From IMG/VR virus record IMGVR_UViG_3300043174_000016, positions 1 to 26,253 of that record: a stretch of DNA of 26,253 nt; one strand, 5' to 3'. Shown here piece by piece: positions 1,072 through 25,177 of this stretch. The notes under the pieces are model-generated. The model had not been told where the DNA came from. It did not search any database and was given only the letters and a program-made list of their open reading frames with translations. Numbering within the stretch: the first letter of the stretch is position 1; the number at the start of each line of letters is the position of its first letter. Source of the stretch: a virus (Duplodnaviria; Caudoviricetes). Made by a program: the position numbers and the translations under genes.

Positions 1072-1456
1072 TGACTGTGTCATAGATGGCACACTGTCAC
1101 TACATTCTAACGGATACGTGCGCGTGATCTTCCGTGGACAGGGCGGTGCAAGTGAATACTTGCACCGCTACATTATGGGCTGCGTGCCCGGTGACAATGT
1201 CATCGTAGATCACATCAACGGTGACATCCTCGACAATCGTCGCAGCAACTTGCGTGCTGTGACGCAGCGAGAGAACATGCACAACGTGTCAAACAAGTAT
1301 GCGTCCAACACGAGTGGTCATCGTGGCGTGTCGTTCAACAAGAGCAAGGGCAAGTATCAAGCCTACATCAAGATCGACTACGTCAAGAAGCATCTTGGCT
1401 ACTTTGAGACGCTTGAAGAAGCTGTAGCTGCAAGAGCATCAGCAAGTCTAGAGTGA
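1064..1456 (+). CDS. HNH homing endonuclease with C-terminal AP2 DNA-binding domain
   Basis: LHRYIMG...VDHINGDILDNRRSNLRAVT...EN is the HNH signature; NTSGHRGVSF...KYQAYI...KHLGYFETLEEAVAAR is AP2-like. ATG at 1064 overlaps the polA end. Confidence 0.92.
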   Translation: MDDDCVIDGTLSLHSNGYVRVIFRGQGGASEYLHRYIMGCVPGDNVIVDHINGDILDNRRSNLRAVTQRENMHNVSNKYASNTSGHRGVSFNKSKGKYQAYIKIDYVKKHLGYFETLEEAVAARASASLE

Positions 1457-1472
1457 CTATGGCCCACTTCAC

Positions 1473-1524
1473 TATCACAGGCCGGGACACAGATTTCACT
1501 TTGCCGCGATCCCGGCCTGTGATA
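1473..1524. repeat. Perfect 15-bp inverted repeat with 22-nt loop
   Basis: TATCACAGGCCGGGA (1473-1487) and TCCCGGCCTGTGATA (1510-1524) in the intergenic region after the HNH gene. Confidence 0.9.
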
Positions 1525-1539
1525 ACATGACACGTGTCA
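1501..1539 (+). promoter_or_regulatory. Putative sigma70-type promoter with overlapping palindromic operator-like site
   Basis: TTGCCG (1501-1506), 16-nt spacer, extended -10 TGaTAACAT (1520-1528), overlapped by TGACACGTGTCA (1528-1539). RBS AAGGAGA at about 1567-1573. Confidence 0.5.
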
Positions 1540-1576
1540 CGGCGCTCATGTCGCGACCATCCTTGCAAGGAGATAC

Positions 1577-1966
1577 GTGATGAAGAAACTGCTGCTTTCC
1601 ACCGTTGCGCTCGCGCTGTCCGCATCGCTCGCGCTGTCCGAAGTCGTGCTTGGCACGGGTGCCGTCGCGCAGTCCGGTGCCGGTGGTGAATACTCGACGC
1701 TTGGCGGTGCCGGTTCGCTCGGCAATGGCGCTGCTCTGTCGGGAACCGTGCTGACGGCGCGCAACACGGGTGCTGCGTTCGGCGTCGCCGGGACCATCGG
1801 CCTCGCTTCCGGTGCTGCGTCGGGTTCGCAGACGACCAACGACCTCGGCGTCGTCAACACGTCGCTCTCGCAGGGTGGCGCTGGCGGCTTCTCGGGTTCG
1901 GCCACGGCTGGCGGCTCGACCGCGCTCGGCTTCGCGTTCGGCGGGTTCGGCGTTTTTCAGCCCTGA
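1577..1966 (+). CDS. Secreted Gly/Ala/Ser-rich small protein of unknown function
   Basis: Strong RBS; start GTG 1577 or ATG 1580. Sec signal peptide MKKLLLSTVALALSASLALS. The mature part is about one quarter Gly with only four charged residues. Confidence 0.85.
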   Translation: MMKKLLLSTVALALSASLALSEVVLGTGAVAQSGAGGEYSTLGGAGSLGNGAALSGTVLTARNTGAAFGVAGTIGLASGAASGSQTTNDLGVVNTSLSQGGAGGFSGSATAGGSTALGFAFGGFGVFQP

Positions 1967-2017
1967 CCGCAGCCGGTGCTGACCGCGCGTATCGCGGTTG
2001 GCTGTGGTGACAGCATC

Positions 2018-2054
2018 GGGGCGCGCATGTAACAACGTGCGCGCCCCTTTCCTT
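2018..2054 (+). terminator. Rho-independent terminator
   Basis: GGGGCGCGCATGT-AACA-ACGTGCGCGCCCC stem followed by TTTCCTT. Confidence 0.75.
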
Positions 2055-2080
2055 CAACCGTCCATTCACGAGGTGATCAC

Positions 2081-2773
2081 ATGGACAATGACTACACCAA
2101 CCACATCATGCCGCGCAAGCCGCGTCCGACGCAGCGCGGCAACTACAGCGCCTTCCTGTGGGCCATCATCCTTGGCCTCGTGTTCTGGGTGCTGCTCGTC
2201 GCAACTGCGTTCGCGCAGTCGAGCAACAGCGAGGCATCGAGCGAGGCGTCGAGCGAAGTCGAGGTCACGACCGGCGCTGCTGCCGGTGCGGCGATCAACA
2301 ACTACGGCCAGAAGGCGGGCAAGGACAACCGCACCTACCAAGAGGTCGCCACCGCGCCCTCGCTCGGCGGCCTTGCACTCGGCGGCGGGCATCCGTGCGC
2401 CTACTCGCCTGCAACCGCGCAGATCAGCATCATCGGCTCCGGTGCGGGCGTCGGCGGCATGAAGGTGGACAGCGCATGTATGCTCATGGTCATGGGCGCA
2501 GCGGGTGATGCGAAAGCCTACAAGGCATCGCAGTATATCATCGCCGCCCGCGATCCCGTCGCCTGCCGGGCGATGGAACGCGCCGGGATGCTAGACTGCG
2601 TGACGAAGGAAGAACGCCGGGCCAATAGCACGACCGCGAAGTCTAGCAAAGGCGTCAATGTCGGATGGGGAGCAAAGTGCGACCTGCAAGGCAAAAAGCT
2701 GATCTTCCAGCCAACGAGCAAGGCAGCGCGCAACGCCGAACTGTCTGCATGCAAGGCGCGTTACGGTATGTGA
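2081..2773 (+). CDS. Exported or membrane-anchored Cys-containing protein of unknown function
   Basis: RBS GAGGTG. Hydrophobic stretch ending in ATAFA (signal peptidase-like site), Ser-rich linker, core TAPSLGGL...HPC...GAGVGGMKVDSAC...RDPVACRAM, six Cys. Confidence 0.85.
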   Translation: MDNDYTNHIMPRKPRPTQRGNYSAFLWAIILGLVFWVLLVATAFAQSSNSEASSEASSEVEVTTGAAAGAAINNYGQKAGKDNRTYQEVATAPSLGGLALGGGHPCAYSPATAQISIIGSGAGVGGMKVDSACMLMVMGAAGDAKAYKASQYIIAARDPVACRAMERAGMLDCVTKEERRANSTTAKSSKGVNVGWGAKCDLQGKKLIFQPTSKAARNAELSACKARYGM

Positions 2774-2901
2774 ACGCGAGCGGCAGCGCCTGCTTGGCAG
2801 TCGCTGCGCTATCGCTTTGCAGCCCGCCGGGGGGTCGGGCACGAGAAACCCCCTACATTCGTTATGACATTTGTCACAGAAACTGCAACATGGGGAAGCA
2901 G

Positions 2902-3075
2902 ATGGATGACGCAGTGCTGATACAGGAGCCGCTTGTCGTGCTCTTGCCACCAATCATCGAAGAGACGGTGCCACCTGCTGACACTGTCACGGTGACGGCA
3001 GACGACGCACCGTGCACGTTGATCCGTGTGCGCAAGGGGACAGAGCACGTGCTGTTCTGTGTGCCAGCGTCATGA
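2902..3075 (+). CDS. Small hypothetical protein (57 aa)
   Basis: MDDAVLIQEP...FCVPAS (alternative ATG at 2890). Its stop overlaps the next start (ATGA 3072-3075). Confidence 0.55.
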   Translation: MDDAVLIQEPLVVLLPPIIEETVPPADTVTVTADDAPCTLIRVRKGTEHVLFCVPAS

Positions 3076-4286
3076 ACTATGCCAAACTTGTGCCGCCCGA
3101 TACATTCATCGGGCGGTATCTTGCCGCAGCATCAGTGCTTGAGACATCGCAGTCATACGACTTCTGGTGCGCGTTGTGGGCGCTAGGCTCGTGCGTCGGT
3201 CGCAGCGTCTACGTGCCGCGTCCTCATGCCCCGGTGTTTCTCAATTGGTATGTCATGCTGGTCGCAGAGAGCGGCGTGACCCGCAAGTCTACCGCCGTGC
3301 GCCTAGCCCGTGACATTGTCAGCGGGTTCCTGGGTGTCGAGCAGATGGTCGAGGGCAGATGCACGCCTGAATACCTGTTCGAGTTGCTGACACGTCACCC
3401 ACACACTGCCATCGCTGTCAGCGAACTTGTGACGTTCCTCGGACGCGAGAGTTACGTCATCGAACTGCCTGCCCTGCTGACAGATCTATACGACTGCCCG
3501 CCCGAGCGTCGGGGCGGCAGTGTCACTCGCGGTGAGCGCATCATCAGCAACGCCTTCGTGACATTTGTCACAGCCTCAACGCCGTCATGGTTACAGACGA
3601 GCGTCAACCCGACTGTGGTCGAAGGTGGCTTCACGTCGCGATGCCTATTCGTGCACGACGAGCAGCCGAAGCAGAAGGTCGCATGGCCGTCCGATCACGT
3701 GAACATCGACGATACTGCCAGCGTGCTACGTGACACTGTGAAGCTGGCACGTGACGTGCAGAAGATCGAACTCATGCCAGCAGCCATGAAGCGGTTCGAG
3801 AGTTGGTATCGCCAACGCGACACATCGAGCATCGTGCCGTTCGTGTCGTCGTTCAACAGCCGAGAAGATGCGCACGTGCTGCGCGCTGCTGCCTGTCTAG
3901 CAGTCAATGACGGCACGATGGCTATCGACGTGCGCCACATCAACGCCGCCGTCAAGCTGATCGCAGCGGTGAAGGCCGGTGCCATCAACATCTTCCAAGA
4001 CGGTGGCACTGTCATCAAGACAGCACAGGGCATCGACAGGATCACCAAGCTGCTGATCGAGGCCGGCCCTCTCGGCATCCCGCACACGCGCTTGTATGCA
4101 GCCGTGCGCTACTACATGCAGCGTGACGACTTCCACATCGCTATGGAACTCATGCACGAGACTGGCATGGTGCATGCTGTCATAGACAACCGCGCAGGCG
4201 GTGGACGGAAGGGCATGCGCTACCTGCCCGCTGATGGCCTGCGCAGTCGCGTCAAGATGGACGCGCTGCGACAGTCGTTTACCTAG
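3072..4286 (+). CDS. DUF3987/YfjI-like AAA+ ATPase, probable replicative helicase
   Basis: Walker A-like VAESGVTRKSTA, TPEYL, Walker B-like IAVSEL, LLTDLYD, ASTPSWL and arginine finger GGFTSR, with a winged-helix-like C-terminus. Start chosen at the ATGA overlap. Confidence 0.75.
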   Translation: MNYAKLVPPDTFIGRYLAAASVLETSQSYDFWCALWALGSCVGRSVYVPRPHAPVFLNWYVMLVAESGVTRKSTAVRLARDIVSGFLGVEQMVEGRCTPEYLFELLTRHPHTAIAVSELVTFLGRESYVIELPALLTDLYDCPPERRGGSVTRGERIISNAFVTFVTASTPSWLQTSVNPTVVEGGFTSRCLFVHDEQPKQKVAWPSDHVNIDDTASVLRDTVKLARDVQKIELMPAAMKRFESWYRQRDTSSIVPFVSSFNSREDAHVLRAAACLAVNDGTMAIDVRHINAAVKLIAAVKAGAINIFQDGGTVIKTAQGIDRITKLLIEAGPLGIPHTRLYAAVRYYMQRDDFHIAMELMHETGMVHAVIDNRAGGGRKGMRYLPADGLRSRVKMDALRQSFT

Positions 4287-7200
4287 TCAGCATACACGTC
4301 AGCGCGCGCTGCTGTCAGGAATGTGTCGATGGTCCATTCCGGGTCGCCAGTGATCTGACGCATGCGGTCCTCGAACATGCCATACGATTGCAGTATCTGC
4401 TGATACTTGGCGTGCATGTCATCGTTGATCTTGTTCAGCACCGTGTTGCGTTCGCTGATGTCCTGCTCCACGTTTGACTGCGTGCGGAAATAGGACGAGC
4501 GTAGCTGCGACAGATCACGGAAGCCTTCCGACACCGCAGGCGTCTTCATGAAGCCTTCATGGATCAGCATTGCCTGCTGTTGCAACGCAGGATCACGCAG
4601 CCCTTCGGCAATGACAGTCATGACAGTGTCATAGGGCATGTCCGCGTCGAGCGGCCCCTCGGTGAAGCTTGGCACGAGGTCACGTGCAAACTCCTGCGCG
4701 CTCTCAGCAAAGTTGCGGATGGCGTATGCCTTCTCAGACAGCGGCGTGCCGCGTGCTGACTGTGTCACAGCATTGCCAAACAGCGCACCAAACCGCTGCC
4801 GGTCAACCATGTTGAACTTGACGACATCGAACACCTTCTCGATGCCCTCACGCATGCTTGCGTCAGGCTGCTGCAACTCGCTGTCCAGCACCTCGGCACT
4901 GTCCATCAGCGTGCGACCAAACGAACCGAGCACCGATGACACCATGTAGAACAGGCGGTCAGTGACGAAGCCGTCATTCTGTCCGACGCCGCGCATTTCA
5001 GGCACACCGCCTTCAATCTGCGGCTGACGGAACAGGCTGTCACCGCGCATCGCGCTCTCGGTGTCAAGCGGCCCATAGCCTGCCGCTGCCGCACCTACGT
5101 TAAGGATTGGCGGCATTGCAGGGATGACCATGTCAAACAGCGCCGCGCGAAGCTTTTGCGGCATCGAGCGGTCGCCAGTCTCGCCTTCGTTCAGCCAAGC
5201 AGACAGGCCGTCAAGCACGCCATGCACGATCAAGCCTGGCTCCGGCCCAAGCGGCAGGTGGAACAGATGCTTCTGTGCGTCGAACGGCTCACCGTCATGC
5301 GGTATCTCAAACGTGATCGACGTGCCACGGCGGTAATCAGGAACGCGGTTCTTGAGGTGATCCTTCGCCTCAGGCGACATCGCTTCATGTAGCGCCCATG
5401 TGGTCATGATCAAGCTGCCCATCGACACAAGCGCGCCTTGGTTCGTGAGGATGTTACGCATCATGTGTGCCGCAGAGTGCAGCGCGATGTTGCCGTATGG
5501 CACCGCGGACGTGATGCGGTTCAGGTTGTCACTGGCACCGCGCTTGGACGGATCAACCGACACCTCGCGAACGTGGTTCACAATTTTGCGATACTGTGCC
5601 TGCGACAGCTTGGCAGGCGCACCGCTCTGCTTGTTGAGCCATTGCTGATGCGCGACGTTACGCGTGAACATGCCAAGGCGATATGCATCACGGATGCCGT
5701 CAAGGGCCGACACGTATGCACGTGACAGCATGTTGCGCTTGACGGGATTGGTGATGGCATTGGTCATGCGCTCCAAGAAGCCGCTGTTCAACTCCGTCAG
5801 CCCCTCGGTCATCATGTTGCCCGAGTAGCCCTGCATCTGCATGGCACCATACTTGCTGTCGATGAAGCGGTTCATTGCTGCATCAGCCGCGACTTTGTCA
5901 ATCGGCATACCACTGGCTGCTGCGCGACGTGCCATGTGCACTGCATACTCTTCCTTGATGCGTCCGGTCGCGCCTTGATACAGGCCCTCGCCAAGCACCG
6001 TCAATGTGTCGAGCGGGCGCAGGATCGCCATGTAGTTGCGCATCTCAGGCGACATACCGAGCCGCGCGAGACGGTCGTCGATCATGCCAGTCACAACACG
6101 GTCAGTGCGGCCACCAAGCATGCCCGCAAAGGCGTCATACGCAAGCGACACGGGCGCGAAAGCGGGGTTCAAGTAGCCAGTCGTGCCTTGCTGGAACCAC
6201 TTGCGCATGGTGTTGAAGCCGAAGCCAGCAACCACCTGCGGGTTGAACTGCAACGCCTTCGCAATGCGCGGATCGCCGACGAAGTAGGTCACGCTCTTGC
6301 CGTCTTCGCGCACCGTGACCGGGATACCGCGCTCGTCGCCTGTCAGCTTCTTGGCAACGATGCGTCGACCCTGACTATAGTCAGTGACATGGCGACCGGC
6401 CATCTGCTTGAGCCACGTGCGTCTGACACGTGTCGCGCCGACCTCTTGCATCTGCGCGTTGATGTAGCGACGCATCGCTTCCATCGGCGGCACCTTCTCA
6501 GCAATGCCACCTTTGGCCTGCTTCTCGAACGCAGATACATCGCTCGCGACACTGTCACGGCCCTTGCTGGAATACTGATCCCACAGGCCAGCAATGCCCG
6601 TGCGCTTCGGCTCGGCCTCGATGTTCGGCATGTATGCGTTCTGCTCACGTGCATGCTGTGCTGCATCAATGATGCCATGCTTGTGACGGTAGTCACTCAT
6701 ACGCGCGCCTTGGTCGAAGTAGAGCGACGCAAACTTGCGCACCTCGGGCGTGCCATTGGCTCGCACAATGTTGACCAGATCATTGTCCGACAGGTGCGTC
6801 ATGTTGTAGACGCCACGTGCACGACGCGACTGCTCATCACGCGCGATGATGTAGTTGTCAATGCGCTTCCGCTTGACCGCGTCCAGCTTGTTATACGCCT
6901 TGTCGAGTTCAAGAAACGGAACCTGCGTGCGGATTGAGCCGTCTGCGTCAAGCACACCTGTCTCGATGAAGCGGTCACGTGCGGTGTTCGCTGCCGTGCC
7001 TGCCTCGGACCGCATGAAGTCGTCAAACGCCTCGATGCGATCACGCCTGACACCTGTGCGACGCATGCCTTCGATCAAAATGTTGCTCTCATCAAGCACG
7101 GTCGTGTTCATGTTCTGCACAACGTCACCGACAGCGTTCATAGCACTGTCACGGACAGGCATGACGCCTAGCTTCGAGCTGCCTTGCGACGTAATGCGTG

Positions 7201-8221
7201 CAGTCGTATCACGCAGTGAGCGGTTGATCGCGCGTCCACCGCCTACGATAGCTGCCAACGCACCAACCGTGCCCACCGCAGCGACATCACCGCTGTCGAT
7301 GCCGTCCCCCTCGTCCTCGGGGAAGCCGGTCATAGCGTCGGCCTGTTCCTCGTCAGTGATGACGCTCAGTGCATTGCTGGCAAGTGTCTCGTCATCCATC
7401 AACTCACGTGTCACGTCATTGATCGCAACCTGCACGGCTGCGTTGGCTGCAATGTTGCTGCCATACTTGCCTGCACCGACCGTGACAGGTGTCACCATTT
7501 CTGCGCCACGCAACGCCGTCTTGAGGCCGGTGCGGACAGCGGTGTTGCTGATCTTGTTGATCACTGCCAACGGCTTCGATACAAGCGCAGCAGGCAAGGT
7601 CAACAAAGTCGAGCCAACGATGCCGCCGACTTCTTCGTCAAGCGGCACCGAGCCATCGGGGTTGTCCGTGACGCCTGTCGTCTCACCGCCCCACGTATAC
7701 CACTCGGACGCAGCTTGCAGCCCCGTGCGCAGGATCGCAGCCGGATTGGCTTCGAGCGCCGCAATCTCCTCGGGCGTCGCCTGTCCTGCCTTGACCCTGT
7801 CAATGAGGTCGCGGCCTTCCTCGGATAGCATCGCTTCGTCCCACGGCACACCGTTGACATAGCGGTCCCACGCTGCACCTGCAAGCCCATACATGGCACC
7901 CGGCGCACCGGGCGTGGCAAGGATCTCCTGGCCCGCGCGGCGCGTGCTGCGCTTGACAAGGCTCTCCTGCGGCTCCGTGACAGATGTCACAGGTTCGACA
8001 GGCGGCACTTCGATTGGCGTTGCACCGGGCGGCAGTGTCTGCGGAACAGGCGTGACAACAGGTGCAGCGGGTGCTGCCTCTGCTGCCATGCCGCGTTGGA
8101 TCAGCTTCTTCGCTGATGCAATGTCACCGGCCTGCTGCGCCAAGCGTGCAGCTTCACGGTATTGCTCCGCAGTGTATTGCCCGTCTGCCACCGTCAGCCA
8201 CCGTTCAGCTTGTTCAGCCAC
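4283..8221 (-). CDS. Large internal virion/ejection protein (1312 aa)
   Basis: Last and largest gene of the structural operon, after three smaller ejection-type genes; helical and Ala-rich. GTG start with GAGGAAG RBS. Function inferred from synteny. Confidence 0.75.
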   Translation of the reverse strand: MAEQAERWLTVADGQYTAEQYREAARLAQQAGDIASAKKLIQRGMAAEAAPAAPVVTPVPQTLPPGATPIEVPPVEPVTSVTEPQESLVKRSTRRAGQEILATPGAPGAMYGLAGAAWDRYVNGVPWDEAMLSEEGRDLIDRVKAGQATPEEIAALEANPAAILRTGLQAASEWYTWGGETTGVTDNPDGSVPLDEEVGGIVGSTLLTLPAALVSKPLAVINKISNTAVRTGLKTALRGAEMVTPVTVGAGKYGSNIAANAAVQVAINDVTRELMDDETLASNALSVITDEEQADAMTGFPEDEGDGIDSGDVAAVGTVGALAAIVGGGRAINRSLRDTTARITSQGSSKLGVMPVRDSAMNAVGDVVQNMNTTVLDESNILIEGMRRTGVRRDRIEAFDDFMRSEAGTAANTARDRFIETGVLDADGSIRTQVPFLELDKAYNKLDAVKRKRIDNYIIARDEQSRRARGVYNMTHLSDNDLVNIVRANGTPEVRKFASLYFDQGARMSDYRHKHGIIDAAQHAREQNAYMPNIEAEPKRTGIAGLWDQYSSKGRDSVASDVSAFEKQAKGGIAEKVPPMEAMRRYINAQMQEVGATRVRRTWLKQMAGRHVTDYSQGRRIVAKKLTGDERGIPVTVREDGKSVTYFVGDPRIAKALQFNPQVVAGFGFNTMRKWFQQGTTGYLNPAFAPVSLAYDAFAGMLGGRTDRVVTGMIDDRLARLGMSPEMRNYMAILRPLDTLTVLGEGLYQGATGRIKEEYAVHMARRAAASGMPIDKVAADAAMNRFIDSKYGAMQMQGYSGNMMTEGLTELNSGFLERMTNAITNPVKRNMLSRAYVSALDGIRDAYRLGMFTRNVAHQQWLNKQSGAPAKLSQAQYRKIVNHVREVSVDPSKRGASDNLNRITSAVPYGNIALHSAAHMMRNILTNQGALVSMGSLIMTTWALHEAMSPEAKDHLKNRVPDYRRGTSITFEIPHDGEPFDAQKHLFHLPLGPEPGLIVHGVLDGLSAWLNEGETGDRSMPQKLRAALFDMVIPAMPPILNVGAAAAGYGPLDTESAMRGDSLFRQPQIEGGVPEMRGVGQNDGFVTDRLFYMVSSVLGSFGRTLMDSAEVLDSELQQPDASMREGIEKVFDVVKFNMVDRQRFGALFGNAVTQSARGTPLSEKAYAIRNFAESAQEFARDLVPSFTEGPLDADMPYDTVMTVIAEGLRDPALQQQAMLIHEGFMKTPAVSEGFRDLSQLRSSYFRTQSNVEQDISERNTVLNKINDDMHAKYQQILQSYGMFEDRMRQITGDPEWTIDTFLTAARADVYAD

Positions 8222-8751
8222 TCTTCCTCACGCGGATCAAGCGCGTCAGGCGTTGCACCTGCAATCGGCCCCGTGTAGACCGGACCCATCTGCACGACTT
8301 CGTAGCCGCTCGTGCCGTTGAGCACCTGCGCGCGGAACGTCTCGTCCATCTCGGATATCTTCGCGACGGTCACGATGCCGTTTGGGTCGCGCAATAGCAT
8401 CTCACCCGGCTTCAATCCATCAGCGCCGCCGCTACCACCACCGCCACCGCCGCCAGATGCAGCACGTGCCATGCCGGCCAGCCGCAGACGGTCTGCCATC
8501 GCAGCGTAGTCACCGCCGAACACCGGCACGTCGCCGCCCGCAAACTGGTCGATCAGGCGGTCAGGTGCCACCATGCCACCGCCCACCTCGGCGATGCCCT
8601 TGATGTTGCCAAGGATGCTGCCGAGCGCCTTCGCACGTGCGTCGAGTTCAGCCGCGACTGCTTCACCGCGCGCTGCACTGCCAGCCATCAGCGTGTCACC
8701 AAGCTGCGCACCGTATCCCGGTGGCCGCGTCATTGGAACCTGTCCAGCCAT
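8194..8751 (-). CDS. Putative internal virion protein (185 aa, Gly linker)
   Basis: Coupled to flanking genes (TAATG overlap at 8751); SGGGGGGGSGG linker; position in the ejection cluster. Confidence 0.65.
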   Translation of the reverse strand: MAGQVPMTRPPGYGAQLGDTLMAGSAARGEAVAAELDARAKALGSILGNIKGIAEVGGGMVAPDRLIDQFAGGDVPVFGGDYAAMADRLRLAGMARAASGGGGGGGSGGADGLKPGEMLLRDPNGIVTVAKISEMDETFRAQVLNGTSGYEVVQMGPVYTGPIAGATPDALDPREEEWLNKLNGG

Positions 8752-9707: not shown

Positions 9708-9708
9708 G

Positions 9709-10662: not shown

Positions 10663-10663
10663 G

Positions 10664-11143
10664 TCATATCTCCTTCATCGTCAGACGACCTACCGTCGCG
10701 TATCCAAGCTTGTTGTAGAATTGCTCGGTGCGCTCTGTGTGCACTCCGGTAGTGATGCCGAGAAGCACACGTTGTGCGCCGTTGTTGCGTGCCCACGTCT
10801 CGAAGGCACCAATCAGCATCCTCGCCGCCACGCTGCCGCGCATTGTCGGCGTAACGTATAGCAAGCGGTCGTAGGCAAACCGCGCGTCAGCGAAGCCGTA
10901 GTCTGCGAGCGAACCAATCACGAAGCCATGACACGTGTCAGCACCATCTACGGCCACCCCGAAGAAGGACAGCGGGTCGGCCCGCATAGTATAGGCAAAC
11001 TCGATCATCTTGTCTACCGCTCGCGGCAGGCTTGTGTATGGGGCGCTGTTGTCCCACATAGCAACACCGAGGCGCACCGCCGCGAGAAGCTGCTGATCGG
11101 TCGGCTCCCGGACCCGCAAGCCCTGTGGGACATTGTCAAGCAT
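10664..11143 (-). CDS. GNAT-family N-acetyltransferase
   Basis: LYVTPTMRGSVAARMLI (acetyl-CoA binding motif A), WARNNGAQRVLLG and FYNKLGY. Confidence 0.88.
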   Translation of the reverse strand: MLDNVPQGLRVREPTDQQLLAAVRLGVAMWDNSAPYTSLPRAVDKMIEFAYTMRADPLSFFGVAVDGADTCHGFVIGSLADYGFADARFAYDRLLYVTPTMRGSVAARMLIGAFETWARNNGAQRVLLGITTGVHTERTEQFYNKLGYATVGRLTMKEI

Positions 11144-11701: not shown

Positions 11702-11711
11702 TTGTGCGCTC

Positions 11712-12212: not shown

Positions 12213-12261
12213 GCGACTTGGTCCTCTTGGAAATCTCCGGCACTCAAACCGGGGGAAGATG

Positions 12262-12792: not shown

Positions 12793-12793
12793 G

Positions 12794-13291: not shown

Positions 13292-13294
13292 GTA

Positions 13295-16896: not shown

Positions 16897-17579
16897 CAGA
16901 TCACCTGATATCCGCTGCTTGGCGGTGCCATGACAGGATGCAGCGGTATCTCCTTCTCGTTCTCGTCGCCCTTCAACTGACGCAGACGGTCATTGAACAG
17001 GTTGCGGAACTTCTCGGTCTGTCCCGCGTTCGTGCCGTCATCCTCAAGGTAGTCGTAGCACGCGCCGAGGATCAGCAACTGCTCGTCCATCGGCACGACA
17101 TCGTTCGGCTTGAAGTATGCGTAGTGGCGCTTGACACGCAGCGTCATCACCATACCCGGTCGGAACGGTGCAAAGCGCACGACCTTCTGCTGATCGGGCA
17201 GCATGTAGAGCGTGTCAGAGCCGCCAGCGACAAACAATGGCGCAGGGTTCGCGCGGCGCGGCCAGTAGCGCAACGGATCGCGGCGCTGTGGATGCCAGCC
17301 ATACTGAATGTCGGTGAAGGTGTTGATGACAACCTCGTTGCCAATCGGCGGCACGGGCAGGTCACGCACCACGTTCTCGACAGGACGACCATCGGTGTCC
17401 TGCGTCAGCGTGATGTAGTCCATGAAGTCATCCCACCACAACTCGTCGCGCACCATGACGAACTTGTGCCAGATCATCTCTGCGATCCGGTCTTCGGCGT
17501 ATACCTGCACGGATACACCGCCAACCATCGACAGACGGGTGACGGTGCGTTGCACAAGCTGGCTCAATGTCTGTGACAT
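16896..17579 (-). CDS. Head-tail adaptor (tail tubular A-like)
   Basis: 227 aa, N-terminal TLSQLVQRTVTRL helix, C-terminal LLILGACYDYL; coupled to the nozzle gene (TGATG). Confidence 0.75.
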   Translation of the reverse strand: MSQTLSQLVQRTVTRLSMVGGVSVQVYAEDRIAEMIWHKFVMVRDELWWDDFMDYITLTQDTDGRPVENVVRDLPVPPIGNEVVINTFTDIQYGWHPQRRDPLRYWPRRANPAPLFVAGGSDTLYMLPDQQKVVRFAPFRPGMVMTLRVKRHYAYFKPNDVVPMDEQLLILGACYDYLEDDGTNAGQTEKFRNLFNDRLRQLKGDENEKEIPLHPVMAPPSSGYQVI

Positions 17580-17587
17580 ATGTCATG

Positions 17588-17664
17588 CCTCTCTGTAGGT
17601 GCGACGGCGATGCTAGAGAGGATAACACCGCCGCCGCGTTACGTCGCCTGGGGGAGCGAACGTA
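17588..17664 (-). promoter_or_regulatory. Structured intergenic RNA element (two hairpins; one loop complementary to the downstream RBS)
   Basis: On the mRNA: 15-bp stem GCGGCGGCGGUGUUA/UAGCAUCGCCGUCGC (17601-17637) with loop UCCUCUC; RBS AGAGAGG at 17588-17594. Confidence 0.6.
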
Positions 17665-18687
17665 TCAGTCGAGCGCGTCGATCAGCGCCTGTGCGGACGC
17701 ATACTTCTGCGCCAGCGTCAGCGTTGCCCAATCGAGTGGCTCACCGACACCGACACCGAGCGCGAACTCGTCGAGCCATGCGTCGGCCTGTGCGTGCGTC
17801 GTGAACGATGTGGGTAGAGCAGGGATCACCGGAGCAGGTGCCGATCCGCTGGTCGGCGTCGCAATGATGCCCGTCAGGTTGACGAGGATCGACGTGCCGT
17901 TCTCGGTGCCACCGCGCACGAGCGTATCGACGTTCGTAATCGTGCGCGCATACTTCGACATCCACAGCTTCGAGAGGGTCGCATTGACCGTGCCCGCAGC
18001 GTTGGGCGTGGTGATCTGCTGTCCATCCGGCAGCGTGTAGAACTGATTGCGCGAGCCGTCCGCAATCAGCGTCTTGGTGATCGCGATGACACCTGACACA
18101 TTGATCGTGCCAGCCATCGTCACGGGTGCGACACGTGTCCCCGACTTGAAGCGGTCAGCGTAGGGCGCACCGAACAACGCGGTCAGGTCCGCGACATACG
18201 GCACGGACACGTGCGCGCCCTTGCTGATGTCAGCCGTGGTCACGAACGTGCCGCGCGCGTCGCCGTCCGCTGCCGACGCAGTGATCGTGTTCGCGGCGTT
18301 CGGCACGGGATGCGCGCCCTTGTATTTGTAGGGCAGGCCGAACTTGTTCGTCCACATCACGTCATCCGGCCCGGTGACGATGCCCGCGAAGGCGATCTTC
18401 GTCGTGCCTGCCGCAGCAACCGTCTCCTTGACGAACTGCCCATACATGTCGTAGCCGATGATCTCGCCACCTGCTGCTGACACCACGCATGCACCCGTCG
18501 AGACAGGGCACACGTTGACATCGCCCATCAGCTTCTGCTGGAACGCAGGCGTGCCGTCGATGTCCACCAGCCACAGCGTCGGCTCACACAGGCCGCTGCC
18601 GCTGTCCACTTCATAGGCATAGCCCATGTCCTTGACGTTCAGAGGCCGCGCAAACGGCGCTCCGATCTGTTGTGTCGCAAGCTGCAT
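17665..18687 (-). CDS. Virion structural protein, probable capsid decoration protein with C-terminal extension (340 aa)
   Basis: Start MQLATQQ at 18687 after an AGGAGG RBS. GYDMYGQFVKET..KIAF..FGLPY..GDARGT resembles proteins encoded after podovirus capsid genes (from recall, not searched). Confidence 0.65.
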   Translation of the reverse strand: MQLATQQIGAPFARPLNVKDMGYAYEVDSGSGLCEPTLWLVDIDGTPAFQQKLMGDVNVCPVSTGACVVSAAGGEIIGYDMYGQFVKETVAAAGTTKIAFAGIVTGPDDVMWTNKFGLPYKYKGAHPVPNAANTITASAADGDARGTFVTTADISKGAHVSVPYVADLTALFGAPYADRFKSGTRVAPVTMAGTINVSGVIAITKTLIADGSRNQFYTLPDGQQITTPNAAGTVNATLSKLWMSKYARTITNVDTLVRGGTENGTSILVNLTGIIATPTSGSAPAPVIPALPTSFTTHAQADAWLDEFALGVGVGEPLDWATLTLAQKYASAQALIDALD

Positions 18688-18688
18688 G

Positions 18689-19030
18689 TCAGCCTCCTTG
18701 ACGAGCGTCCACGCTCCCGGTGTCAGCGCGGCGTGTGGACGCTCCTGCGCGGCGCTGAACATGCTTCTTGAGCGACATCTGCACCTGGCCGACAACCTCG
18801 CCGTCCTCGTCGATGAGTTCGGCAGGCTGATCGAAGCCAAGGCGATGCAACTCTTCTTCATTCCGCACACGGATGCTGTGTCCCGCAGGGAAGAACACGT
18901 CGAAGCCATACGGCACCTCGACCTTCTTCTCGACGTTGCGTCCGTCTTCGCGCATGATGTGCGTCTCGACCGTCGTCTCATGACGACGGTCGTGAACTTC
19001 ATAGCGCGGCTTTACAGCCTGCTGGATCAT
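18689..19030 (-). CDS. Hypothetical protein (113 aa)
   Basis: ATGA-coupled to the upstream acidic ORF; typical codon usage. Confidence 0.75.
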   Translation of the reverse strand: MIQQAVKPRYEVHDRRHETTVETHIMREDGRNVEKKVEVPYGFDVFFPAGHSIRVRNEEELHRLGFDQPAELIDEDGEVVGQVQMSLKKHVQRRAGASTRRADTGSVDARQGG

Positions 19031-19176
19031 GCCGGGGTTCCCTCGACATCATCGGTGTCATCGGCGTCGTCATCGTCATCGTCGTCGCCGTCATCACCAT
19101 CGTCGTCGTCATCGTCGAAGAAGCTGTCGTCTTCGAGTTCGTCGCTGCCACCGTTCAGTTCGTCGTCGTTCAGCAT
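19027..19176 (-). CDS. Extremely acidic 49-aa peptide
   Basis: GAGAGGA RBS; MLNDDELNGGSDELEDDSFFDDDDDDGDDGDDDDDDDADDTDDVEGTPA; stop overlaps the next start. Confidence 0.7.
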   Translation of the reverse strand: MLNDDELNGGSDELEDDSFFDDDDDDGDDGDDDDDDDADDTDDVEGTPA

Positions 19177-19222
19177 GTTGTATCCTCTCATGTTACATGC
19201 GTTGCGGTTGGTAGTCTCAGTG

Positions 19223-19256
19223 CAAGCGGGCCATGACATGTGTCACAGCCCGCTCG
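19223..19256 (-). terminator. Post-capsid hairpin (terminator, pause or stability element)
   Basis: AGCGGGCUGUGACA-CA-UGUCAUGGCCCGCU just after the capsid stop; no U-tract; centred on a TGACA-NN-TGTCA site. Confidence 0.5.
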
Positions 19257-19260
19257 TAGG

Positions 19261-20253
19261 TCAGGCGTTGGAGACGACAGCGTGCGTTCTGAACGCGCGC
19301 CACATGCACCACTGCCCCTGCCACACCACGCGGCGCCCGACAGCGTCGGTGTCCCACGGCGCGACAAGCTGCTTCACCTTCATGTTCACGTGGCGCAGGA
19401 TGTGCAGCCGCAGGAACTTGCTGTTGATGAAGTAGCACTTGTTGACCGGGCAGTCTTCGTCGTAGACCATCGGCACGTTCTGGAACGTGACACCGCCGAA
19501 CCCGAGGTCGGCCATGCGCGTCCCGTTCTTCGTCTCCGACAGTGCGAAGATGACTTTGTCACGCACAGCGGCGCGATACAGACGCATGATGTTGCGCCCG
19601 CACAGGATGATGTCGGGCTTCTCGCCCTTGACCGTCAGGTCCATCATGATGTCGTCGAACGCTTCTTCGATGTTGGTCTGGTTCAGCGCACCCGCGAACA
19701 GGTAGGATGACGTGCGCCACTGCACCTCATTCGCGCGGTCGAGGTCGCCGAGCACGCCGGTCGTCGGGTCGTCAGGGATGAGGTTCGACAGGCCGAGCGG
19801 GTCGGTTCCTGCGCCGGCACCGTAGAGGTAGCCGCTGAACTTCTCCTTGATGCTCTCTTCGAGCACTTCCATCTTCGCGCGCAGCAGCTTGAAGATCTGC
19901 GCACCACCTTGGTTCTCGTCCTGCTCCTGATCGCTGATGACGACAGAGCCTGCGACACGCGACCAGTTGTAGCGCACCGTCTCGAACTCGCTCGTCTGCG
20001 CCATCGGCAGTTGGTCGTAGTATTCGTAGGACGCAACGTTCGGGTTGCGGCCAACGGTCAGCGGGTTGGTGATCTCGTGACCACCGTCCTCATACTCCAC
20101 GCGCCCCGTCGCGAACGCCCACGCTTGCAGCGCGTTCGATTTCACAGAAGCCATGATCAGCTTCTTGCGCGACTTCGTCATCGTGGAGTGCAGCACCGTA
20201 TCAAGCGGTGTGCTACCACCGGGATGATACGGAGGGGTGCCATATCCTGGCAT
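19261..20253 (-). CDS. Major capsid protein
   Basis: 330 aa after portal and scaffold; GGHEITNPL, YNWS..AGSVVIS..E, PDIILCG, GFGGVTFQNVPMVYD..CP...YFINS pattern of HK97-fold capsids; strongly biased codons. Confidence 0.92.
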   Translation of the reverse strand: MPGYGTPPYHPGGSTPLDTVLHSTMTKSRKKLIMASVKSNALQAWAFATGRVEYEDGGHEITNPLTVGRNPNVASYEYYDQLPMAQTSEFETVRYNWSRVAGSVVISDQEQDENQGGAQIFKLLRAKMEVLEESIKEKFSGYLYGAGAGTDPLGLSNLIPDDPTTGVLGDLDRANEVQWRTSSYLFAGALNQTNIEEAFDDIMMDLTVKGEKPDIILCGRNIMRLYRAAVRDKVIFALSETKNGTRMADLGFGGVTFQNVPMVYDEDCPVNKCYFINSKFLRLHILRHVNMKVKQLVAPWDTDAVGRRVVWQGQWCMWRAFRTHAVVSNA

Positions 20254-20265
20254 CGTTCACTCCAT

Positions 20266-21360
20266 CTAGTTGAGCAGTCCTGCCTCACGCATGGACTGCC
20301 GGACAATGTTGTCCCACGCATCGTCAGGGTTCGCCATGTTCGGCCCTTGTTGCATGGCCTGCGTCGGCGCGCTCCCGTTCGGCATGGGCTGTTGCTGCGG
20401 CGCATTGGGGCGTGGTTGCGCGTGACCGTTGGTGCCTGTGCCGCCCTGCTGTCGCACCAGCACCTGTGCGCGTAGGGGTTGAGCGAAGTCCAAGCCGTTC
20501 TTCGCGGCATACTCACGCAGTTGCCAGTAGGCGACTTGCGGGGTCAGCTTCGGATCGCCTTGCAGCATGTTCGCGAGCACATCCTCGTGCACAGTCGCAT
20601 GCTCATGCTTGGCGACGAACTCGTCGTATTCACGCTGCGCGCTCTGCTCGGCTTCACTCTGCCGTTGCTGCGCTTGGCGGTCGCCGACCAACGGTTGCAT
20701 TGCCTCAGCGATCATGCTGCGGACGGCCTGAAGGTCCAAAGACCCACCAATGGCCTGCCCTTTAGCATCTGCACCGACGATCTGTTGCAGATTATAGCCC
20801 TGACGCATGGTCTCTTGCAACATCCATCTTGCGGTCGCGACCGGGTCTTTCTTGAACGACGCGATGGCTTGCAGGCCGATCTCAGCTTCGGACAGCGACA
20901 GGCCAAGCTTCTGCGGCACCTCGTTCAGCGCACGTGCGTAGGTGTCCTGCTTGCGCGCGTCAACCAACTCGCGCTCAAGGCGGTCGATGTATTTCTGCTG
21001 CTGCTGTGCGCGCTCGAAGTGACGACGCTCGGCACCCGCAGCGGCAATGATGTTGCCATCCTTGTCGATCAGGTTGCCTTTGTCGTCCGTGCGAGGCTTG
21101 TCGGCAGCATCAGCTTTCGGCGCTGCTTGGGGCTGCTGCTGTTGTTGTCCGGGTGCAGCTTTGTCTCCTGCACCGCTCGTGACAGTGTCACCGCCTGCGA
21201 GCTGATCGGCCTGCTTGGCAGCGTCATCTTGCGCACCACCATCAGCGGGCGCTGTCGTAGTCGTGCCATCGGGCGCTCCTTCGTTACCGACCTTGCTCTC
21301 GTAGTCAGGATCATTCAGCAGCGGATCGCCGAAGTCGATGTCGTCCTCTTCACCGGGCAT
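20266..21360 (-). CDS. Capsid scaffolding protein
   Basis: Between portal and capsid; acidic disordered N-terminus, Q-rich coiled coils, C-terminal helix DDAWDNIVRQSMREAG. Confidence 0.78.
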   Translation of the reverse strand: MPGEEDDIDFGDPLLNDPDYESKVGNEGAPDGTTTTAPADGGAQDDAAKQADQLAGGDTVTSGAGDKAAPGQQQQQPQAAPKADAADKPRTDDKGNLIDKDGNIIAAAGAERRHFERAQQQQKYIDRLERELVDARKQDTYARALNEVPQKLGLSLSEAEIGLQAIASFKKDPVATARWMLQETMRQGYNLQQIVGADAKGQAIGGSLDLQAVRSMIAEAMQPLVGDRQAQQRQSEAEQSAQREYDEFVAKHEHATVHEDVLANMLQGDPKLTPQVAYWQLREYAAKNGLDFAQPLRAQVLVRQQGGTGTNGHAQPRPNAPQQQPMPNGSAPTQAMQQGPNMANPDDAWDNIVRQSMREAGLLN

Positions 21361-21373
21361 GTTGGTCCTCTCC

Positions 21374-23560
21374 TTATGCCGTCTGTTGTTGCGGTTGTTG
21401 TTGCGCTACCTGCGCGATGCGTGTCAACGCTTCACGCACAGGCACCCCACGCGCCATTGCCATGCCCAACGCCTGCTTGGCTTCGGGCGGTAGTGCATCC
21501 ACGACTGCCTCAATGGCAGCAATGGGATCGCCTTGCGGCTGTGACGGCGCACCACCTTCTGCCGGTGCACCACCTTCTGCGGGCGGCGCAGCACTTTGCG
21601 GTTGCTGTGCCATCTGCGAGATGATCGCCTTCCACTGTTCGTCAGGGATCACGTCATTGAACGCACCGCGCATCGTTTCGAGCAGCACCATGATGACCGG
21701 CTGCGGCGCGGCGTTCACGAACTGCCCGAGCACCTGGCCCATCTGCAACGCCTGCTGCTTCTTGCTCTCGCTGGTCTGCTTCTGCGTGCTGCCACCGACC
21801 ACGGTCATCTGCACCGTCGCTTCGATCTCGTCGGGCGACATCTGCTTCCACGACGATGCGTCGCCTTGACCGATCAGCGTAGCGACTTGCGCGGCTGGCA
21901 TGAACTGCATGCACAACTGCGCAACGCCCCATGCGATCTGGCCGATGTAGTCCTCGACCGCGTCGATCTTCTCGTCCGTGCGCGTCTGCTGGATGCTGTT
22001 GTAGGTGTTGATCGCCTGATTGGTCGTGTTCGTCTTGAACTCGACGCCACGCATGACAGGCTGCACGCTGCTGACGCGGTCGATGGCCTCAAGGATCGGC
22101 TGCTTGTCGAACAACTGCACGAACTGCATGCTCGGCGGCACGATTGCCTGCACGAAGTCCTTGAGGTTCATGCCCTCTGGCACATCAACGCCGACAGCGA
22201 CATCCTCGTCGCCTTTCAGCATGCGTTCGACTTCATCCTTCGACACCTTGTTCTTGTCGAAGAACAGGTTGCGCCGCGCCCACTGACGCGCCTGCTTGAA
22301 CTCGCTGTTGATCTGGTTGACCGCGTCTTGCTGGTCGAGGTAATACGTCACCTCGCCCTTCGACATCGGTTCCTCGGGGTCGGTGTAGAACTGCAACTTG
22401 TAGAGCGGGAAGAAGCCTTGCAGGTGGTAGGGATCATCCCACACCCACACCGGCCAATCCCAATCGTTGTCTGCGTAGAGCATGACACGCCGCGTCGTCT
22501 TGTCCCACACCCACCAGCACATCGTGCGCTGTGCACGTTGATACGACTGCTCGTCGCCGTAGCCGAATGACGCTGCGCCCGCCTTCTCGCTGTCATCGAA
22601 CAGCGAGTAGTTGTTGATCTCATGCTCGGCGCTGTTCTCACCGCTCTCACCGGCCTGCACAACGTGCGTTGGCTTATAGAGCGACATCGTCTGGTCGCCC
22701 TTCTGCTGACGGAAGCGTGCATTGAGATACGAGGTGCTGATGTAGTCGCGGATCATCACCCACCGCGCGTCACTGTGGTCATCTTCGAGACTGTCGGGGT
22801 CGATCAGTATGTCATGCGGACGGCGGAACTTGGCCCACGGTCCCGCTGGACGCAGCAAGTCAACCGTCTGCTCCAACGCCTCGATGCGGCCCTCGATAGC
22901 ACGCACATCCTGCGGCGTCTTGGCCTTGATCAACTCGTCCGACATCTTCGCGAGGTCGGCAAGCGCCTGATCGCTCGACTGCTCACGGAACGTGTAGCCG
23001 ATCTCCATGTAAGCAGCGTTCGTCAGCGTGCACATGACGACCGACTTGCGCACCTTCTGCTTGAGGTTGATGCCGGGTGCAGCCTTCTTCGACATCAGCC
23101 GCGCGATCAGCTTCTCAAGCACCGTCGCCAACTCGTTGTCGTCTTTGTCGTTCGCAGTGAACTCGGCGCGCGGGTTCTTGGCATACAGCATCGGCACAAG
23201 CGCAGACGTGTTCGCGAAGACGATGTTCTCGGTCTCGCTGAACCGCCGCGTCATGCGCCGTGCAGCTTCCTCATTGCCCGCGCTATCGCCGTCCGTCTCG
23301 ACGCGATGCTTGACCTGATCGTTGCGGTAGTAGGACAGCGCCTCGTCCCACGCGCGACCGAGGTCACGCGACGTGCGCTTCGACAGCGCCTGCTTCTTGC
23401 GCGACTGCCACAGCTTGCCGTGCGCCTTCGCGACAGGGATCTTGCTGTCAGTGCTGACGATCTGATAGACCGGCTTCACCTTCTCTTGCTTCTTCTGCGG
23501 CACAACTTCCAAGTCACCGCGCGCGATCTCGTCGTCGATCTGTTCGTCAATGTCGGCCAT
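21374..23560 (-). CDS. Portal protein
   Basis: 728 aa directly after TerL; NIVFANTSALVPMLYAKNP, LDQQDAVNQI, TTNQAI and a Q/P-rich tail resemble P22-like portals. Confidence 0.88.
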   Translation of the reverse strand: MADIDEQIDDEIARGDLEVVPQKKQEKVKPVYQIVSTDSKIPVAKAHGKLWQSRKKQALSKRTSRDLGRAWDEALSYYRNDQVKHRVETDGDSAGNEEAARRMTRRFSETENIVFANTSALVPMLYAKNPRAEFTANDKDDNELATVLEKLIARLMSKKAAPGINLKQKVRKSVVMCTLTNAAYMEIGYTFREQSSDQALADLAKMSDELIKAKTPQDVRAIEGRIEALEQTVDLLRPAGPWAKFRRPHDILIDPDSLEDDHSDARWVMIRDYISTSYLNARFRQQKGDQTMSLYKPTHVVQAGESGENSAEHEINNYSLFDDSEKAGAASFGYGDEQSYQRAQRTMCWWVWDKTTRRVMLYADNDWDWPVWVWDDPYHLQGFFPLYKLQFYTDPEEPMSKGEVTYYLDQQDAVNQINSEFKQARQWARRNLFFDKNKVSKDEVERMLKGDEDVAVGVDVPEGMNLKDFVQAIVPPSMQFVQLFDKQPILEAIDRVSSVQPVMRGVEFKTNTTNQAINTYNSIQQTRTDEKIDAVEDYIGQIAWGVAQLCMQFMPAAQVATLIGQGDASSWKQMSPDEIEATVQMTVVGGSTQKQTSESKKQQALQMGQVLGQFVNAAPQPVIMVLLETMRGAFNDVIPDEQWKAIISQMAQQPQSAAPPAEGGAPAEGGAPSQPQGDPIAAIEAVVDALPPEAKQALGMAMARGVPVREALTRIAQVAQQQPQQQTA

Positions 23561-23571
23561 TGCGGTGCTCC

Positions 23572-25143
23572 TTATCCGTAGCGATGTGCTCGCGGTGATG
23601 CCGTGACAATGTCACGAGTATGCCACTTGAGATAGGCCGGGGGCTTTGGTATAGCATATCGTGGGAGTTTGGCAATCTCTGGACGGCGACTTAGCATGTA
23701 TTTGATCGCGTCCATAGCATGATCATCTCTATCGCGAGGCTTATCCTCCCGTTCACCTCGGGAATTGCTGGCCCAAAGGTAGGTGCCGAACTCGTCGATG
23801 ACATATGTCAGCGTGTCAGCGATGTAGAGATGCGGTGCACCGTGCTCACCTGTCAGCGGATGCTGGTGCATCTTCGACGGGCTGAGATACGTGCTCACCT
23901 TGATGATGCCATTCAGGATGTCGTTGTTGCCGCGCACCATGCGCACGCCCATGCCATTGTCATGGAACACGTCAGCGGTCGATATGCCCACCGTGCGGCG
24001 TGTGGCACTGGTGCGACGGAAGATTGCCGGGTCGGCCATGACAGGCTGATTGCCTCGCACGCCATACACGTCGCGCAGACGCTTGATTTCGTCGCGCTGA
24101 TCCTCGACGGGCATGATCTCGCCCTTCTCATAGAAGCCGTCGATCAGGAACGTGTTGCCCCATGCATCACTGATGCCGATCAAGTAGCATGACGGCACCG
24201 CGATGCCGAAGTCGTAGCCCTCGACATACTGCAACTCGTAGAACTTCTGTTGCAGGTCGCCGAGGTAGTCCATGATCGCGTCATACGGCAGGATGTGCAC
24301 TGTCGGGTCGAACTGCGGATAGATCAGGCCCTCGTAGCTGCCCCACCCGCCCATCAAGAAGCGTTGCTTCATGCTACCGCGATACGTGCTTTCGAGCGTC
24401 TTGATGAAGTCAGGCTCCAGGTTCTCTGCGTTCTCATACGTGCTGCCCTCGACAACGCCAAGCAGCAGATGCGGCTTGCCTGCATCGTCGAGCACCGGAC
24501 GGTCGTTCGCGTCGCGCTCGCACAGCAGTTGCGGGCTGATGACACCTGTCTCACGGTAGATGTGATACGGCTGGATGATCTTCTTGTAGACCCAATTCCG
24601 CGTTGGGTTCGACGTGATGACGAAGTAGCGCGGTCCCGTGCGTGGCATCGTTGGATCGTCACCGATGTATGGCGTCATGCCACGCAGACGACCGAGCAAG
24701 TCGTCGAAGTCCTTCTCGACAATCTCCGGGTCTTCGATCTGATCGACGATGATCCAGTCATATGTCGCAGACAGCAGGTTTGACGTGCCTTGTCCGTCAA
24801 CAGACGTGCTCTGCTGCGCGACGTAGCGGAAGTTGATCGTGCTGCCGTTCGACAGCGTGCACGTGTTGCTCGCATTGGCGCTGAGTGGGAACGACTTGAT
24901 CCAGTGCTTCGGACACCACTTCAAGAACTCCTTGCGGATCGTGTCGTTTAGCTTCGGATACGTGCTGCGTGCAATCAGACCGTTGCTGCCGGGATAATCG
25001 CGCGCCCATTTGAGCGCCTTGAGCACGACAGACGCGGATGTCTTGCCGTTCGCAAAGCCGCCGCCGTAGAACTGCACCTTTGAGCGCAGTGCATCGAACT
25101 GCTCTTGCAGCGATCCCTCGTGTATGCGGTAGACCTTGCTCAC
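23572..25143 (-). CDS. terL: Terminase large subunit
   Basis: Walker A YGGGFANGKT, ARSTYPKL, Walker B WIIVDQIE, motif III TSNP, nuclease GYDFG, ADPA and DDHAMDA. Confidence 0.95.
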   Translation of the reverse strand: MSKVYRIHEGSLQEQFDALRSKVQFYGGGFANGKTSASVVLKALKWARDYPGSNGLIARSTYPKLNDTIRKEFLKWCPKHWIKSFPLSANASNTCTLSNGSTINFRYVAQQSTSVDGQGTSNLLSATYDWIIVDQIEDPEIVEKDFDDLLGRLRGMTPYIGDDPTMPRTGPRYFVITSNPTRNWVYKKIIQPYHIYRETGVISPQLLCERDANDRPVLDDAGKPHLLLGVVEGSTYENAENLEPDFIKTLESTYRGSMKQRFLMGGWGSYEGLIYPQFDPTVHILPYDAIMDYLGDLQQKFYELQYVEGYDFGIAVPSCYLIGISDAWGNTFLIDGFYEKGEIMPVEDQRDEIKRLRDVYGVRGNQPVMADPAIFRRTSATRRTVGISTADVFHDNGMGVRMVRGNNDILNGIIKVSTYLSPSKMHQHPLTGEHGAPHLYIADTLTYVIDEFGTYLWASNSRGEREDKPRDRDDHAMDAIKYMLSRRPEIAKLPRYAIPKPPAYLKWHTRDIVTASPRAHRYG

Positions 25144-25177
25144 TGCGGCCTGCCATGCGCTTCGCTGTCAAATGCCA

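Follow-up and report, generated by a model that had tools for sequence, protein, structure and literature searches.

The 26,253-nt stretch of the uncultured Caudoviricetes record IMGVR_UViG_3300043174_000016 (the whole stretch is called the window below) carries a dispersed array of 20 perfect copies of the palindrome TGACA-N1/2-TGTCA, and this array is real and under selection. With a probability of roughly 0.6, we interpret the sites as operators of one phage-encoded dimeric regulator that acts on transcription of the early arm by the host sigma70 polymerase. Direct observations are the sites themselves, their conservation, their bias towards the early arm and towards gene starts, their recurrent position upstream of the first early promoter, and an outer sequence that is specific for each phage lineage.

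All 20 copies listed in the first-pass annotation were found again at the same coordinates, 8 with a 1-nt and 12 with a 2-nt spacer. No TGACA/TGTCA pair with a spacer of 0 or 3-7 nt, or in the inverse arrangement, occurs in the window. The 11 one-mismatch copies that had been reported were all recovered, among 14 found at the two spacings, and the relaxed pattern TGAC-N3/4-GTCA has 28 copies. The annotated chance expectation of 0.03 copies was too low, as Markov models of orders 1-5 predict 0.12-0.65 for the whole window, still a tiny number. Enrichment persisted in a codon shuffle that preserved the proteins: 16 in-gene sites compare with a mean of 0.21 and a maximum of 3 in 2000 shuffles. 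The excess is about 80-fold, alike in the window and in L375, a 17.1 kb contig that is discussed below. Apart from sub-words of the TGACA motif, other palindromes with 5-bp arms have at most 4 copies each. The description of the sites as embedded in genes applies to 16 of the 20, not to two that are intergenic (1528, 2865) and two that straddle start codons (17574, 19234); site 11689 falls in a doubtful open reading frame (ORF). The sites are indeed not a protein repeat, since they occupy two reading frames and encode many peptides.

If the array had arisen merely from composition, through alternating purines and pyrimidines or through codon or amino-acid use, the strong alternation and TG/CA excess in the window clade would be expected, as would the roughly 2-fold enrichment of lone half-sites in the window genes. 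We consider this explanation hardly credible. It is refuted by the shuffles and by arm conservation: neither codon shuffles nor Markov models expect more than 0.65 copies, only spacers of 1-2 nt in one orientation are used, the arms are under purifying selection, and relatives with equal alternation have a different motif or lack one. Purine/pyrimidine alternation is also strong in the gap between early and late transcription (35640-36580 in the complete relative G001, and equivalents elsewhere). CC/GG is depleted genome-wide (about 0.6) in the window clade, whereas low-GC relatives, G008 and G012 among them, show no such depletion.

Selection on the sites could be followed in the sister contig L002, which is 89% identical to the window over 10.9 kb. 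All 7 aligned sites are conserved. Their 70 arm bases show no change at all (P about 1e-4 when compared with backgrounds for each codon position), while three spacers differ. In line with a check that the annotation had proposed for synonymous positions, 0 of 22 third positions in the arms were changed, compared with a background of 19% (P 0.009). One-mismatch variants on the sense strand of 9 records gave 32 G-U, 26 A-C and 53 other combinations, and thus no sign of an RNA wobble bias. Because the arms are conserved, wobble bias is absent and bare hairpins are weak, we infer recognition as double-stranded DNA. The sites might instead act as hairpins in RNA or single-stranded DNA that control translation or processing at gene junctions. 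Several of them do cover stop or start codons or follow a ribosome site, the site after the capsid gene caps a longer inverted repeat, and the variable spacer would follow from a loop of 3-4 nt on a 4-bp stem. This is nevertheless very unlikely, as predicted energies are only -0.8 to -2.1 kcal/mol, flanking bases lengthen the palindrome by only 0-2 bases, and the arms are constant within a genome while the loop varies, with no wobble bias on the sense strand.

L375 (record G057) matches the window in GC content and motif, and carries the same dataset number as L002. It is probably the early/replication arm of this sister phage, a pairing deduced without BLAST overlap with L002 or the window. 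The region covered by L375 extends from the first early gene as far as the polymerase, with 26 perfect sites, 21 of them with a 2-nt spacer; 16 are in genes, compared with 0.20 expected from codon shuffling. A whole genome of the window/L375 type would have about 46 or more sites.

The sites are not evenly distributed over the arms. Counted over 8 records, 93 sites fall in 117 kb of early/replication arm, compared with 78 in 207 kb of late arm (P 1e-6); this bias is slight in G026 and G009. Sites are enriched about 3-fold at gene starts (30 of 182 sites versus 9 expected), and several L375 sites are placed between a ribosome site and its ATG or overlap stop codons. The gap from which early and late transcription run apart contains a cluster of two to five sites. 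Early promoters of the relatives are sigma70-like (TTGACA-17-TA..T), and a site centred at -56 to -81 of the first early promoter is found in 5 of 6 array-bearing versus 3 of 13 array-free phages, a comparison that omits 8 of 27 phages for which the script found no promoter. A separate promoter survey adds sites at the first early promoter in G001 (-71.5), G009 (-74.5) and G023 (-97.5 and +6). The phasing of a class I activator was considered and rejected, as positions -56.5, -62, -64.5, -71.5, -73.5, -74.5, -80 and -80.5 are not cleanly periodic. When the collection was scanned for the promoter-plus-site pattern, 14 of its 64 parts yielded 120 loci, and the phage family of the window was not among them.

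Such arrays recur in this family with other sequences. A strong dispersed motif of its own was found in 11 of 28 long records, the window included. The capsid of G001 is 92% identical to that of the window phage, and yet G001 has 22 TAAC-N3/4-GTTA sites and a single perfect TGACA site; its TAAC sites are at positions unrelated to those in the window. Other records have CCAA-N6-TTGG (21 copies, G009), TCCAC-N3-GTGGA (13, G017), TTAC-N3-GTAA (15, G020), GTCA-N5/6-TGAC (26, G023), TATAC-N3-GTATA (22, G028) or CAACG-N2-CGTTG (6, G038); G026 and G027 share the near-palindrome GTGTGAGTCATACA, and G043 has an asymmetric motif. Shorter contigs add CTAC-N4-GTAG, TTTAC-N4-GTAAA, TACA-N5-TGTA, TCAAC-N4-GTTGA and TGACA-N4-TGTCA, so that the family has at least 10 different motifs. 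Most have a common inner AC-N3/4-GT with phage-specific outer bases, the exceptions being G023, G026/G027, G043 and L167. The motifs are nearly mutually exclusive: a matrix of cross-counts for 8 records is near-diagonal, with off-diagonal values of at most 5 except for the pair of window and L375. In a capsid tree (a quick version), phages that differ in motif, or have none, lie close to one another, and TGAC, TAAC and TGACA-N4 motifs occur in phages with 90-92% identical capsids. In G026/G027 (L218-L220, L224-L225), GTGTGAGTCATACA is present at very many gene junctions, mostly in one orientation, and often includes the upstream stop codon and ends 7-8 nt before the next ATG. It is the most stoperator-like case in the family.

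Under the regulator reading, a binder made early would sit beside the first promoter and exert feedback on the start of the early operon. Binding at gene junctions and inside genes would act as a roadblock, in the manner of a palindromic stoperator. The inner AC-N3/4-GT core with its changing outer 2-3 bases would reflect one family of binders with drifting specificity, as in immunity groups. A phage protein could also bind the sites for a job other than transcription, such as coating or organising the genome, DNA entry, replication, packaging or shielding from defence. Most sites are inside genes and far from promoters, spacing is slightly more even than random in G026 (P 0.001) and G001 (P 0.04), and the terminase small subunit has an HTH-like (helix-turn-helix) segment by eye; the authors who described an array in Cluster O mycobacteriophages concluded likewise for their own case (PMC4351075). 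We regard a non-transcriptional function as unlikely, since the 3-fold enrichment at gene starts and the recurrent place upstream of the first early promoter point to control of expression, 7 of 9 records lack even spacing, and the terminase segment shows no visible covariation with the motifs.

The window itself encodes no obvious cognate binder, as the annotation had stated. Regulator genes of the ribbon-helix-helix (RHH) and HNH-HTH types, which it had suggested looking for in the rest of the genome, are present in relatives; neither was seen to track the arrays. A site lies at the start of the RHH-like gene in L375 and L186, and 76 nt upstream of this gene in G001. An RHH protein as the universal binder was rejected: the array-bearing G020 and G028 have no RHH match, and the recognition strand N-x-R-x-R does not differ between TGAC phages, the TAAC phage and marine phages without arrays, and so shows no covariation with the motif. 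The HNH-HTH fusion of L375 passes the HTH_3 cut-off and has three sites at or within its gene; G023 and G026 gave no match to it, and array-free phages have it too. Neither its helices nor the HTH-like segment of the terminase small subunit (seen by eye in L001/L002) covary with the motifs by eye, and an HTH-like gene of G001 was rejected as the family binder because it has no match in L375.

The leading candidate, though a weak one, is the product of the first early gene, which is encoded outside the window. A gene for about 300-460 amino acids follows the site-bearing promoter in each array-bearing phage for which this region is covered. Its product of about 320 amino acids (L375:287-1252, L134:1993-3015) evolves very fast. 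Among 15 orthologue pairs from L375 and G001, a TGAC and a TAAC phage, this protein has the lowest identity (27% versus 41-67%), and it is 94% identical between two phages with a common motif. A larger family of first early proteins forms 242 clusters at 50% identity. In several low-GC relatives without palindrome arrays, no long first-early ORF was found beside the first late gene, some of these contigs being too short. The nearest named cluster for one first early protein in the ESM Atlas is a c-repressor family, at a score of 0.81, which is a lead only, as all matches with named families were below 0.9. For the G017 protein, a model with a pLDDT (predicted local distance difference test) of 76 gave no match at E<=0.001 in PDB or BFVD, and the best VIA Z of 7.4 covered a helical hairpin only; for such a predicted structure, the lack of a fold match does not show that the fold is new. 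We name this protein as a weak, tentative candidate for the binder, with odds that lean against it. Even if it has nothing to do with the sites, it might act as an anti-host factor.

Several observations weigh against a phage-encoded early regulator. None of the candidate proteins emerged as the binder, and no gene cluster separates array-bearing from array-free genomes, in a comparison by our own simple gene caller and BLAST clustering, which may overlook genes that are small and divergent. Many relatives without an array also encode the first early protein. It matches nothing in Pfam or PHROG, no DNA-binding fold could be recognised in it, and the version of the window clade corresponds to the larger family by position only, with no detectable homology (HHalign 1.2%). 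A strong array is lacking in 17 of the 28 long records, which have none or at most 4-5 copies. Away from gene starts lie 152 of the 182 sites, and a site within 120 bp is missing from most of the other predicted promoters. The variable spacer of 1-2 nt is awkward for a rigid dimer. Neither an integrase nor a partition gene was seen in G001 or L375, and so there is apparently no lysogenic state that silencing could serve. Finally, no host was found, which leaves some small room for a host binder.

MatP, which is encoded by certain Gammaproteobacteria, was named with its matS site by the first-pass annotation as an analogue, and titration of a host regulator was among its suggestions. The two exact matS matches that it reported, at 21179 and 23603, are present. 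The consensus tested was the 13-bp GTGACRNYGTCAC with fixed spacer as given in that annotation, a string found in one paper. It fits only 2 of the 20 window sites and none in L375; the spacer is wrong in 12 of the 20, and 33 of the 46 TGACA sites in the window and L375 have a 2-nt spacer that is absent from matS. MatP/matS, or titration of one conserved host regulator, is thus poorly supported, and a relative with a 92% identical capsid has a different motif at different positions. Because the motif changes rapidly between close phages, a single conserved host protein is disfavoured. A broader version would have a host protein, either a MatP-like organiser or a transcription factor, bind the sites, each lineage having copied the motif of its own host to recruit or titrate it. 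The 1-nt class does have the matS core, with two exact matS copies, and the patchy presence of arrays, which tracks no phage gene, would fit dependence on the host. Among 301 bacterial genomes from the phylum of G062, some have a modest excess of the motif over a control pattern (28 versus 4 and 32 versus 6, for example). We nevertheless judge it improbable: the motif switches among phages with 90-92% identical capsids, with at least 10 motifs in the family, most TGACA sites have the spacer that matS lacks, and none of the 301 bacterial genomes has more than 32 copies, a density of up to about 9 per Mb and thus about 100-fold below the 760-1600 per Mb in the phage.

The matS sites are palindromes with a TGAC-N3-GTCA core that are bound by a dimer and occur as a fixed 13-mer about 35 kb apart in the chromosome terminus (PMC6907758). 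The window array resembles them in its TGAC-N3-GTCA-core palindrome with about 20 dispersed copies, and differs in its spacing of about 1 kb, in most sites having a longer spacer or other flanks, and in sister phages having other motifs. The annotation's analogy with stoperators is apt, the site being a selected, sequence-specific, dyad-symmetric element of double-stranded DNA; the term "undescribed system" was overstated, since the Cluster O array is comparable (PMC4351075). Cluster O mycobacteriophages (Corndog) contain 34 copies of the 17-bp palindrome TGTTCGG-N3-CCGAACA, described as a single sequence common to five near-identical genomes (PMC4351075). Shared features include sites in their dozens, each with dyad symmetry around a short free spacer, within and between genes, one denser arm, a location mostly away from promoters, and phages without integrase (PMC4351075). 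Like Cluster O, with more than 30 dyad-symmetric sites in and between genes and no integrase, the window phage has about 46 sites, counting the window and L375 together, and no integrase was seen. Its arms are shorter than those of Cluster O (4-5 bp) and its sites come with two spacer lengths, and within its family one close relative has another variant of the motif in place of the first; Cluster O phages are prolate siphoviruses, whereas the window has a different motif, a P22-like portal and a podovirus-like gene set.

Stoperators of Cluster A mycobacteriophages (L5 gp71 type) are described as 20-30 genome-wide sites, most of them not at promoters, that are asymmetric, oriented with transcription and bound by a monomeric repressor in the context of lysogeny (PMC6550527; PMC9283540). 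These phages are temperate, with an integrase or ParAB and an immunity repressor, which stops the elongation of transcripts where it is bound. Dispersed sites mostly off promoters and motifs that diverge between phages, in Cluster A along with the repressor, are common to both systems. The window sites, in contrast, are perfect inverted repeats, no repressor was recognised and no lysogeny genes were seen; asymmetric motifs occur within the family only in the distant G026/G027 and in G043. A further parallel is repressor c of phiC31, a phage regulator that reportedly binds dispersed conserved inverted repeats; phiC31 is temperate, and the window phage apparently lytic. Homology to this repressor was not found (PF25746 in 0 of 5 near-complete relatives; HHalign 0.8%). 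An earlier description of the motif of this phage family was not found in the literature, in a search that did not cover subscription journals and supplements; only the Cluster O and stoperator papers were relevant. Dispersed palindrome arrays are thus a known phenomenon in phages, and what is new here is the short palindrome with two spacers, the lineage-specific outer code and the apparently lytic family.

The window is a fragment of an uncultured podovirus-like freshwater phage, apparently lytic. A public contig from a freshwater run matches positions 1-19900 with 1 difference, and may be the window's own source. There is no close cultured relative, the best matches having less than 30% identity. 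The host search returned one capsid match, in a 26-kb contig of a metagenome-assembled genome, and did not reveal a host. Integrase or partition genes were not seen among the proteins scanned (30 from the complete G001, where the scan covered part of the ORFs, and 25 from L375/L001). Positions 1..4286 (+ strand) hold the end of the early/replication arm, with the C-terminus of DNA polymerase A, an HNH gene, two signal-peptide-like ORFs and a primase/helicase, at 1.4 sites per kb. The late arm (4283..26253, - strand; 0.64 sites per kb) encodes the small and large terminase subunits, a P22-like portal, a scaffold-like gene, the major capsid protein (phrog_9953), and tail and internal proteins.

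As palindromes, the sites are given without strand. In the early arm they lie within the HNH endonuclease gene (1192..1202, 1-nt spacer, encoding D-N-V), in intergenic DNA about 40 nt before a Gly-rich ORF (1528..1539, 2-nt), in intergenic DNA that precedes a small ORF and the primase/helicase gene (2865..2876, 2-nt), within this small ORF (2979..2989, 1-nt; ORF 2890-3075 is our own gene call), and twice within the primase/helicase gene (3311..3321, 1-nt; 3559..3570, 2-nt, encoding V-T-F-V-T). The late arm begins with three sites (4621..4631, 1-nt; 7483..7494 and 7978..7989, 2-nt) in a gene for 1312 amino acids, likely an internal virion protein from its size and position. Further sites are in a gene for 317 amino acids (10011..10021, 1-nt), in a GNAT acetyltransferase gene (10929..10940, 2-nt), in the doubtful ORF or directly after a ribosome site (11689..11700, 2-nt), and in a tail-fibre-like gene (14177..14187, 1-nt). 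A structural gene for 654 amino acids has two (15606..15617 and 16173..16184, both 2-nt), both conserved in L002. The site at 17574..17585 (2-nt) follows a ribosome site and extends across the ATG of a gene for 227 amino acids, and in L002 its arms are the same and its spacer is altered. The one at 19234..19245 (2-nt) forms the top of a longer GC-rich inverted repeat directly after the capsid stop codon; this place also has a site in L002, L003, L004 and L006, and in G001 one with its own motif. The exact matS matches correspond to a site in the scaffold-like gene (21180..21190, 1-nt; match from 21179), conserved in L002, and to one near the end of the gene for the terminase large subunit (23604..23614, 1-nt; match from 23603), with the same arms and an altered spacer in L002. 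The last site is within the latter gene (23799..23810, 2-nt) and conserved in L002.

A few further features stood out. Between polymerase and primase, two ORFs without family match (1577-1966 and 2081-2773) have signal-peptide-like N-termini; one is Gly/Ala-rich, and the other has paired cysteines. An ORF for 70 amino acids with a long aspartate run (19027-19239) directly follows the capsid gene, and G001 has an acidic ORF for 128 amino acids at the same place. Two neighbouring late genes for about 170 amino acids each (12262-13291) have a common 66-bp stretch with 76% identity, which suggests a duplicated N-terminal module. The terminase small subunit (25895-26253) is cut off by the window end; the whole protein in L001/L002 has about 200 amino acids. 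The DNA polymerase A of the family has a domain of the uracil-DNA-glycosylase superfamily at its N-terminus (in G001, L182:16906-19422; the start is also in L375:14907-16154).

Dispersed palindrome arrays in non-temperate phages, as in Cluster O, have been unexplained since 2015. The present family offers what Cluster O lacks, namely at least 10 variant motifs on one phylogeny, with close relatives that differ, and cross-binding of cognate and non-cognate sites could reveal the binder without knowledge of the host. If the binder is phage-encoded, the family would show how a whole operator array gets replaced in evolution, and might be a source of orthogonal regulators. In a more speculative extension, for which we see an outside chance, the fast-evolving first early protein of this apparently lytic family, with its unrecognised fold, would be the sequence-specific, genome-wide binder, and lineages would rewrite the outer bases of the AC-N3/4-GT site and re-seed 15-45 copies, with self/non-self discrimination among kin phages as the result. 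If true, this would amount to superinfection control without lysogeny, and to a natural series of orthogonal protein-operator pairs.

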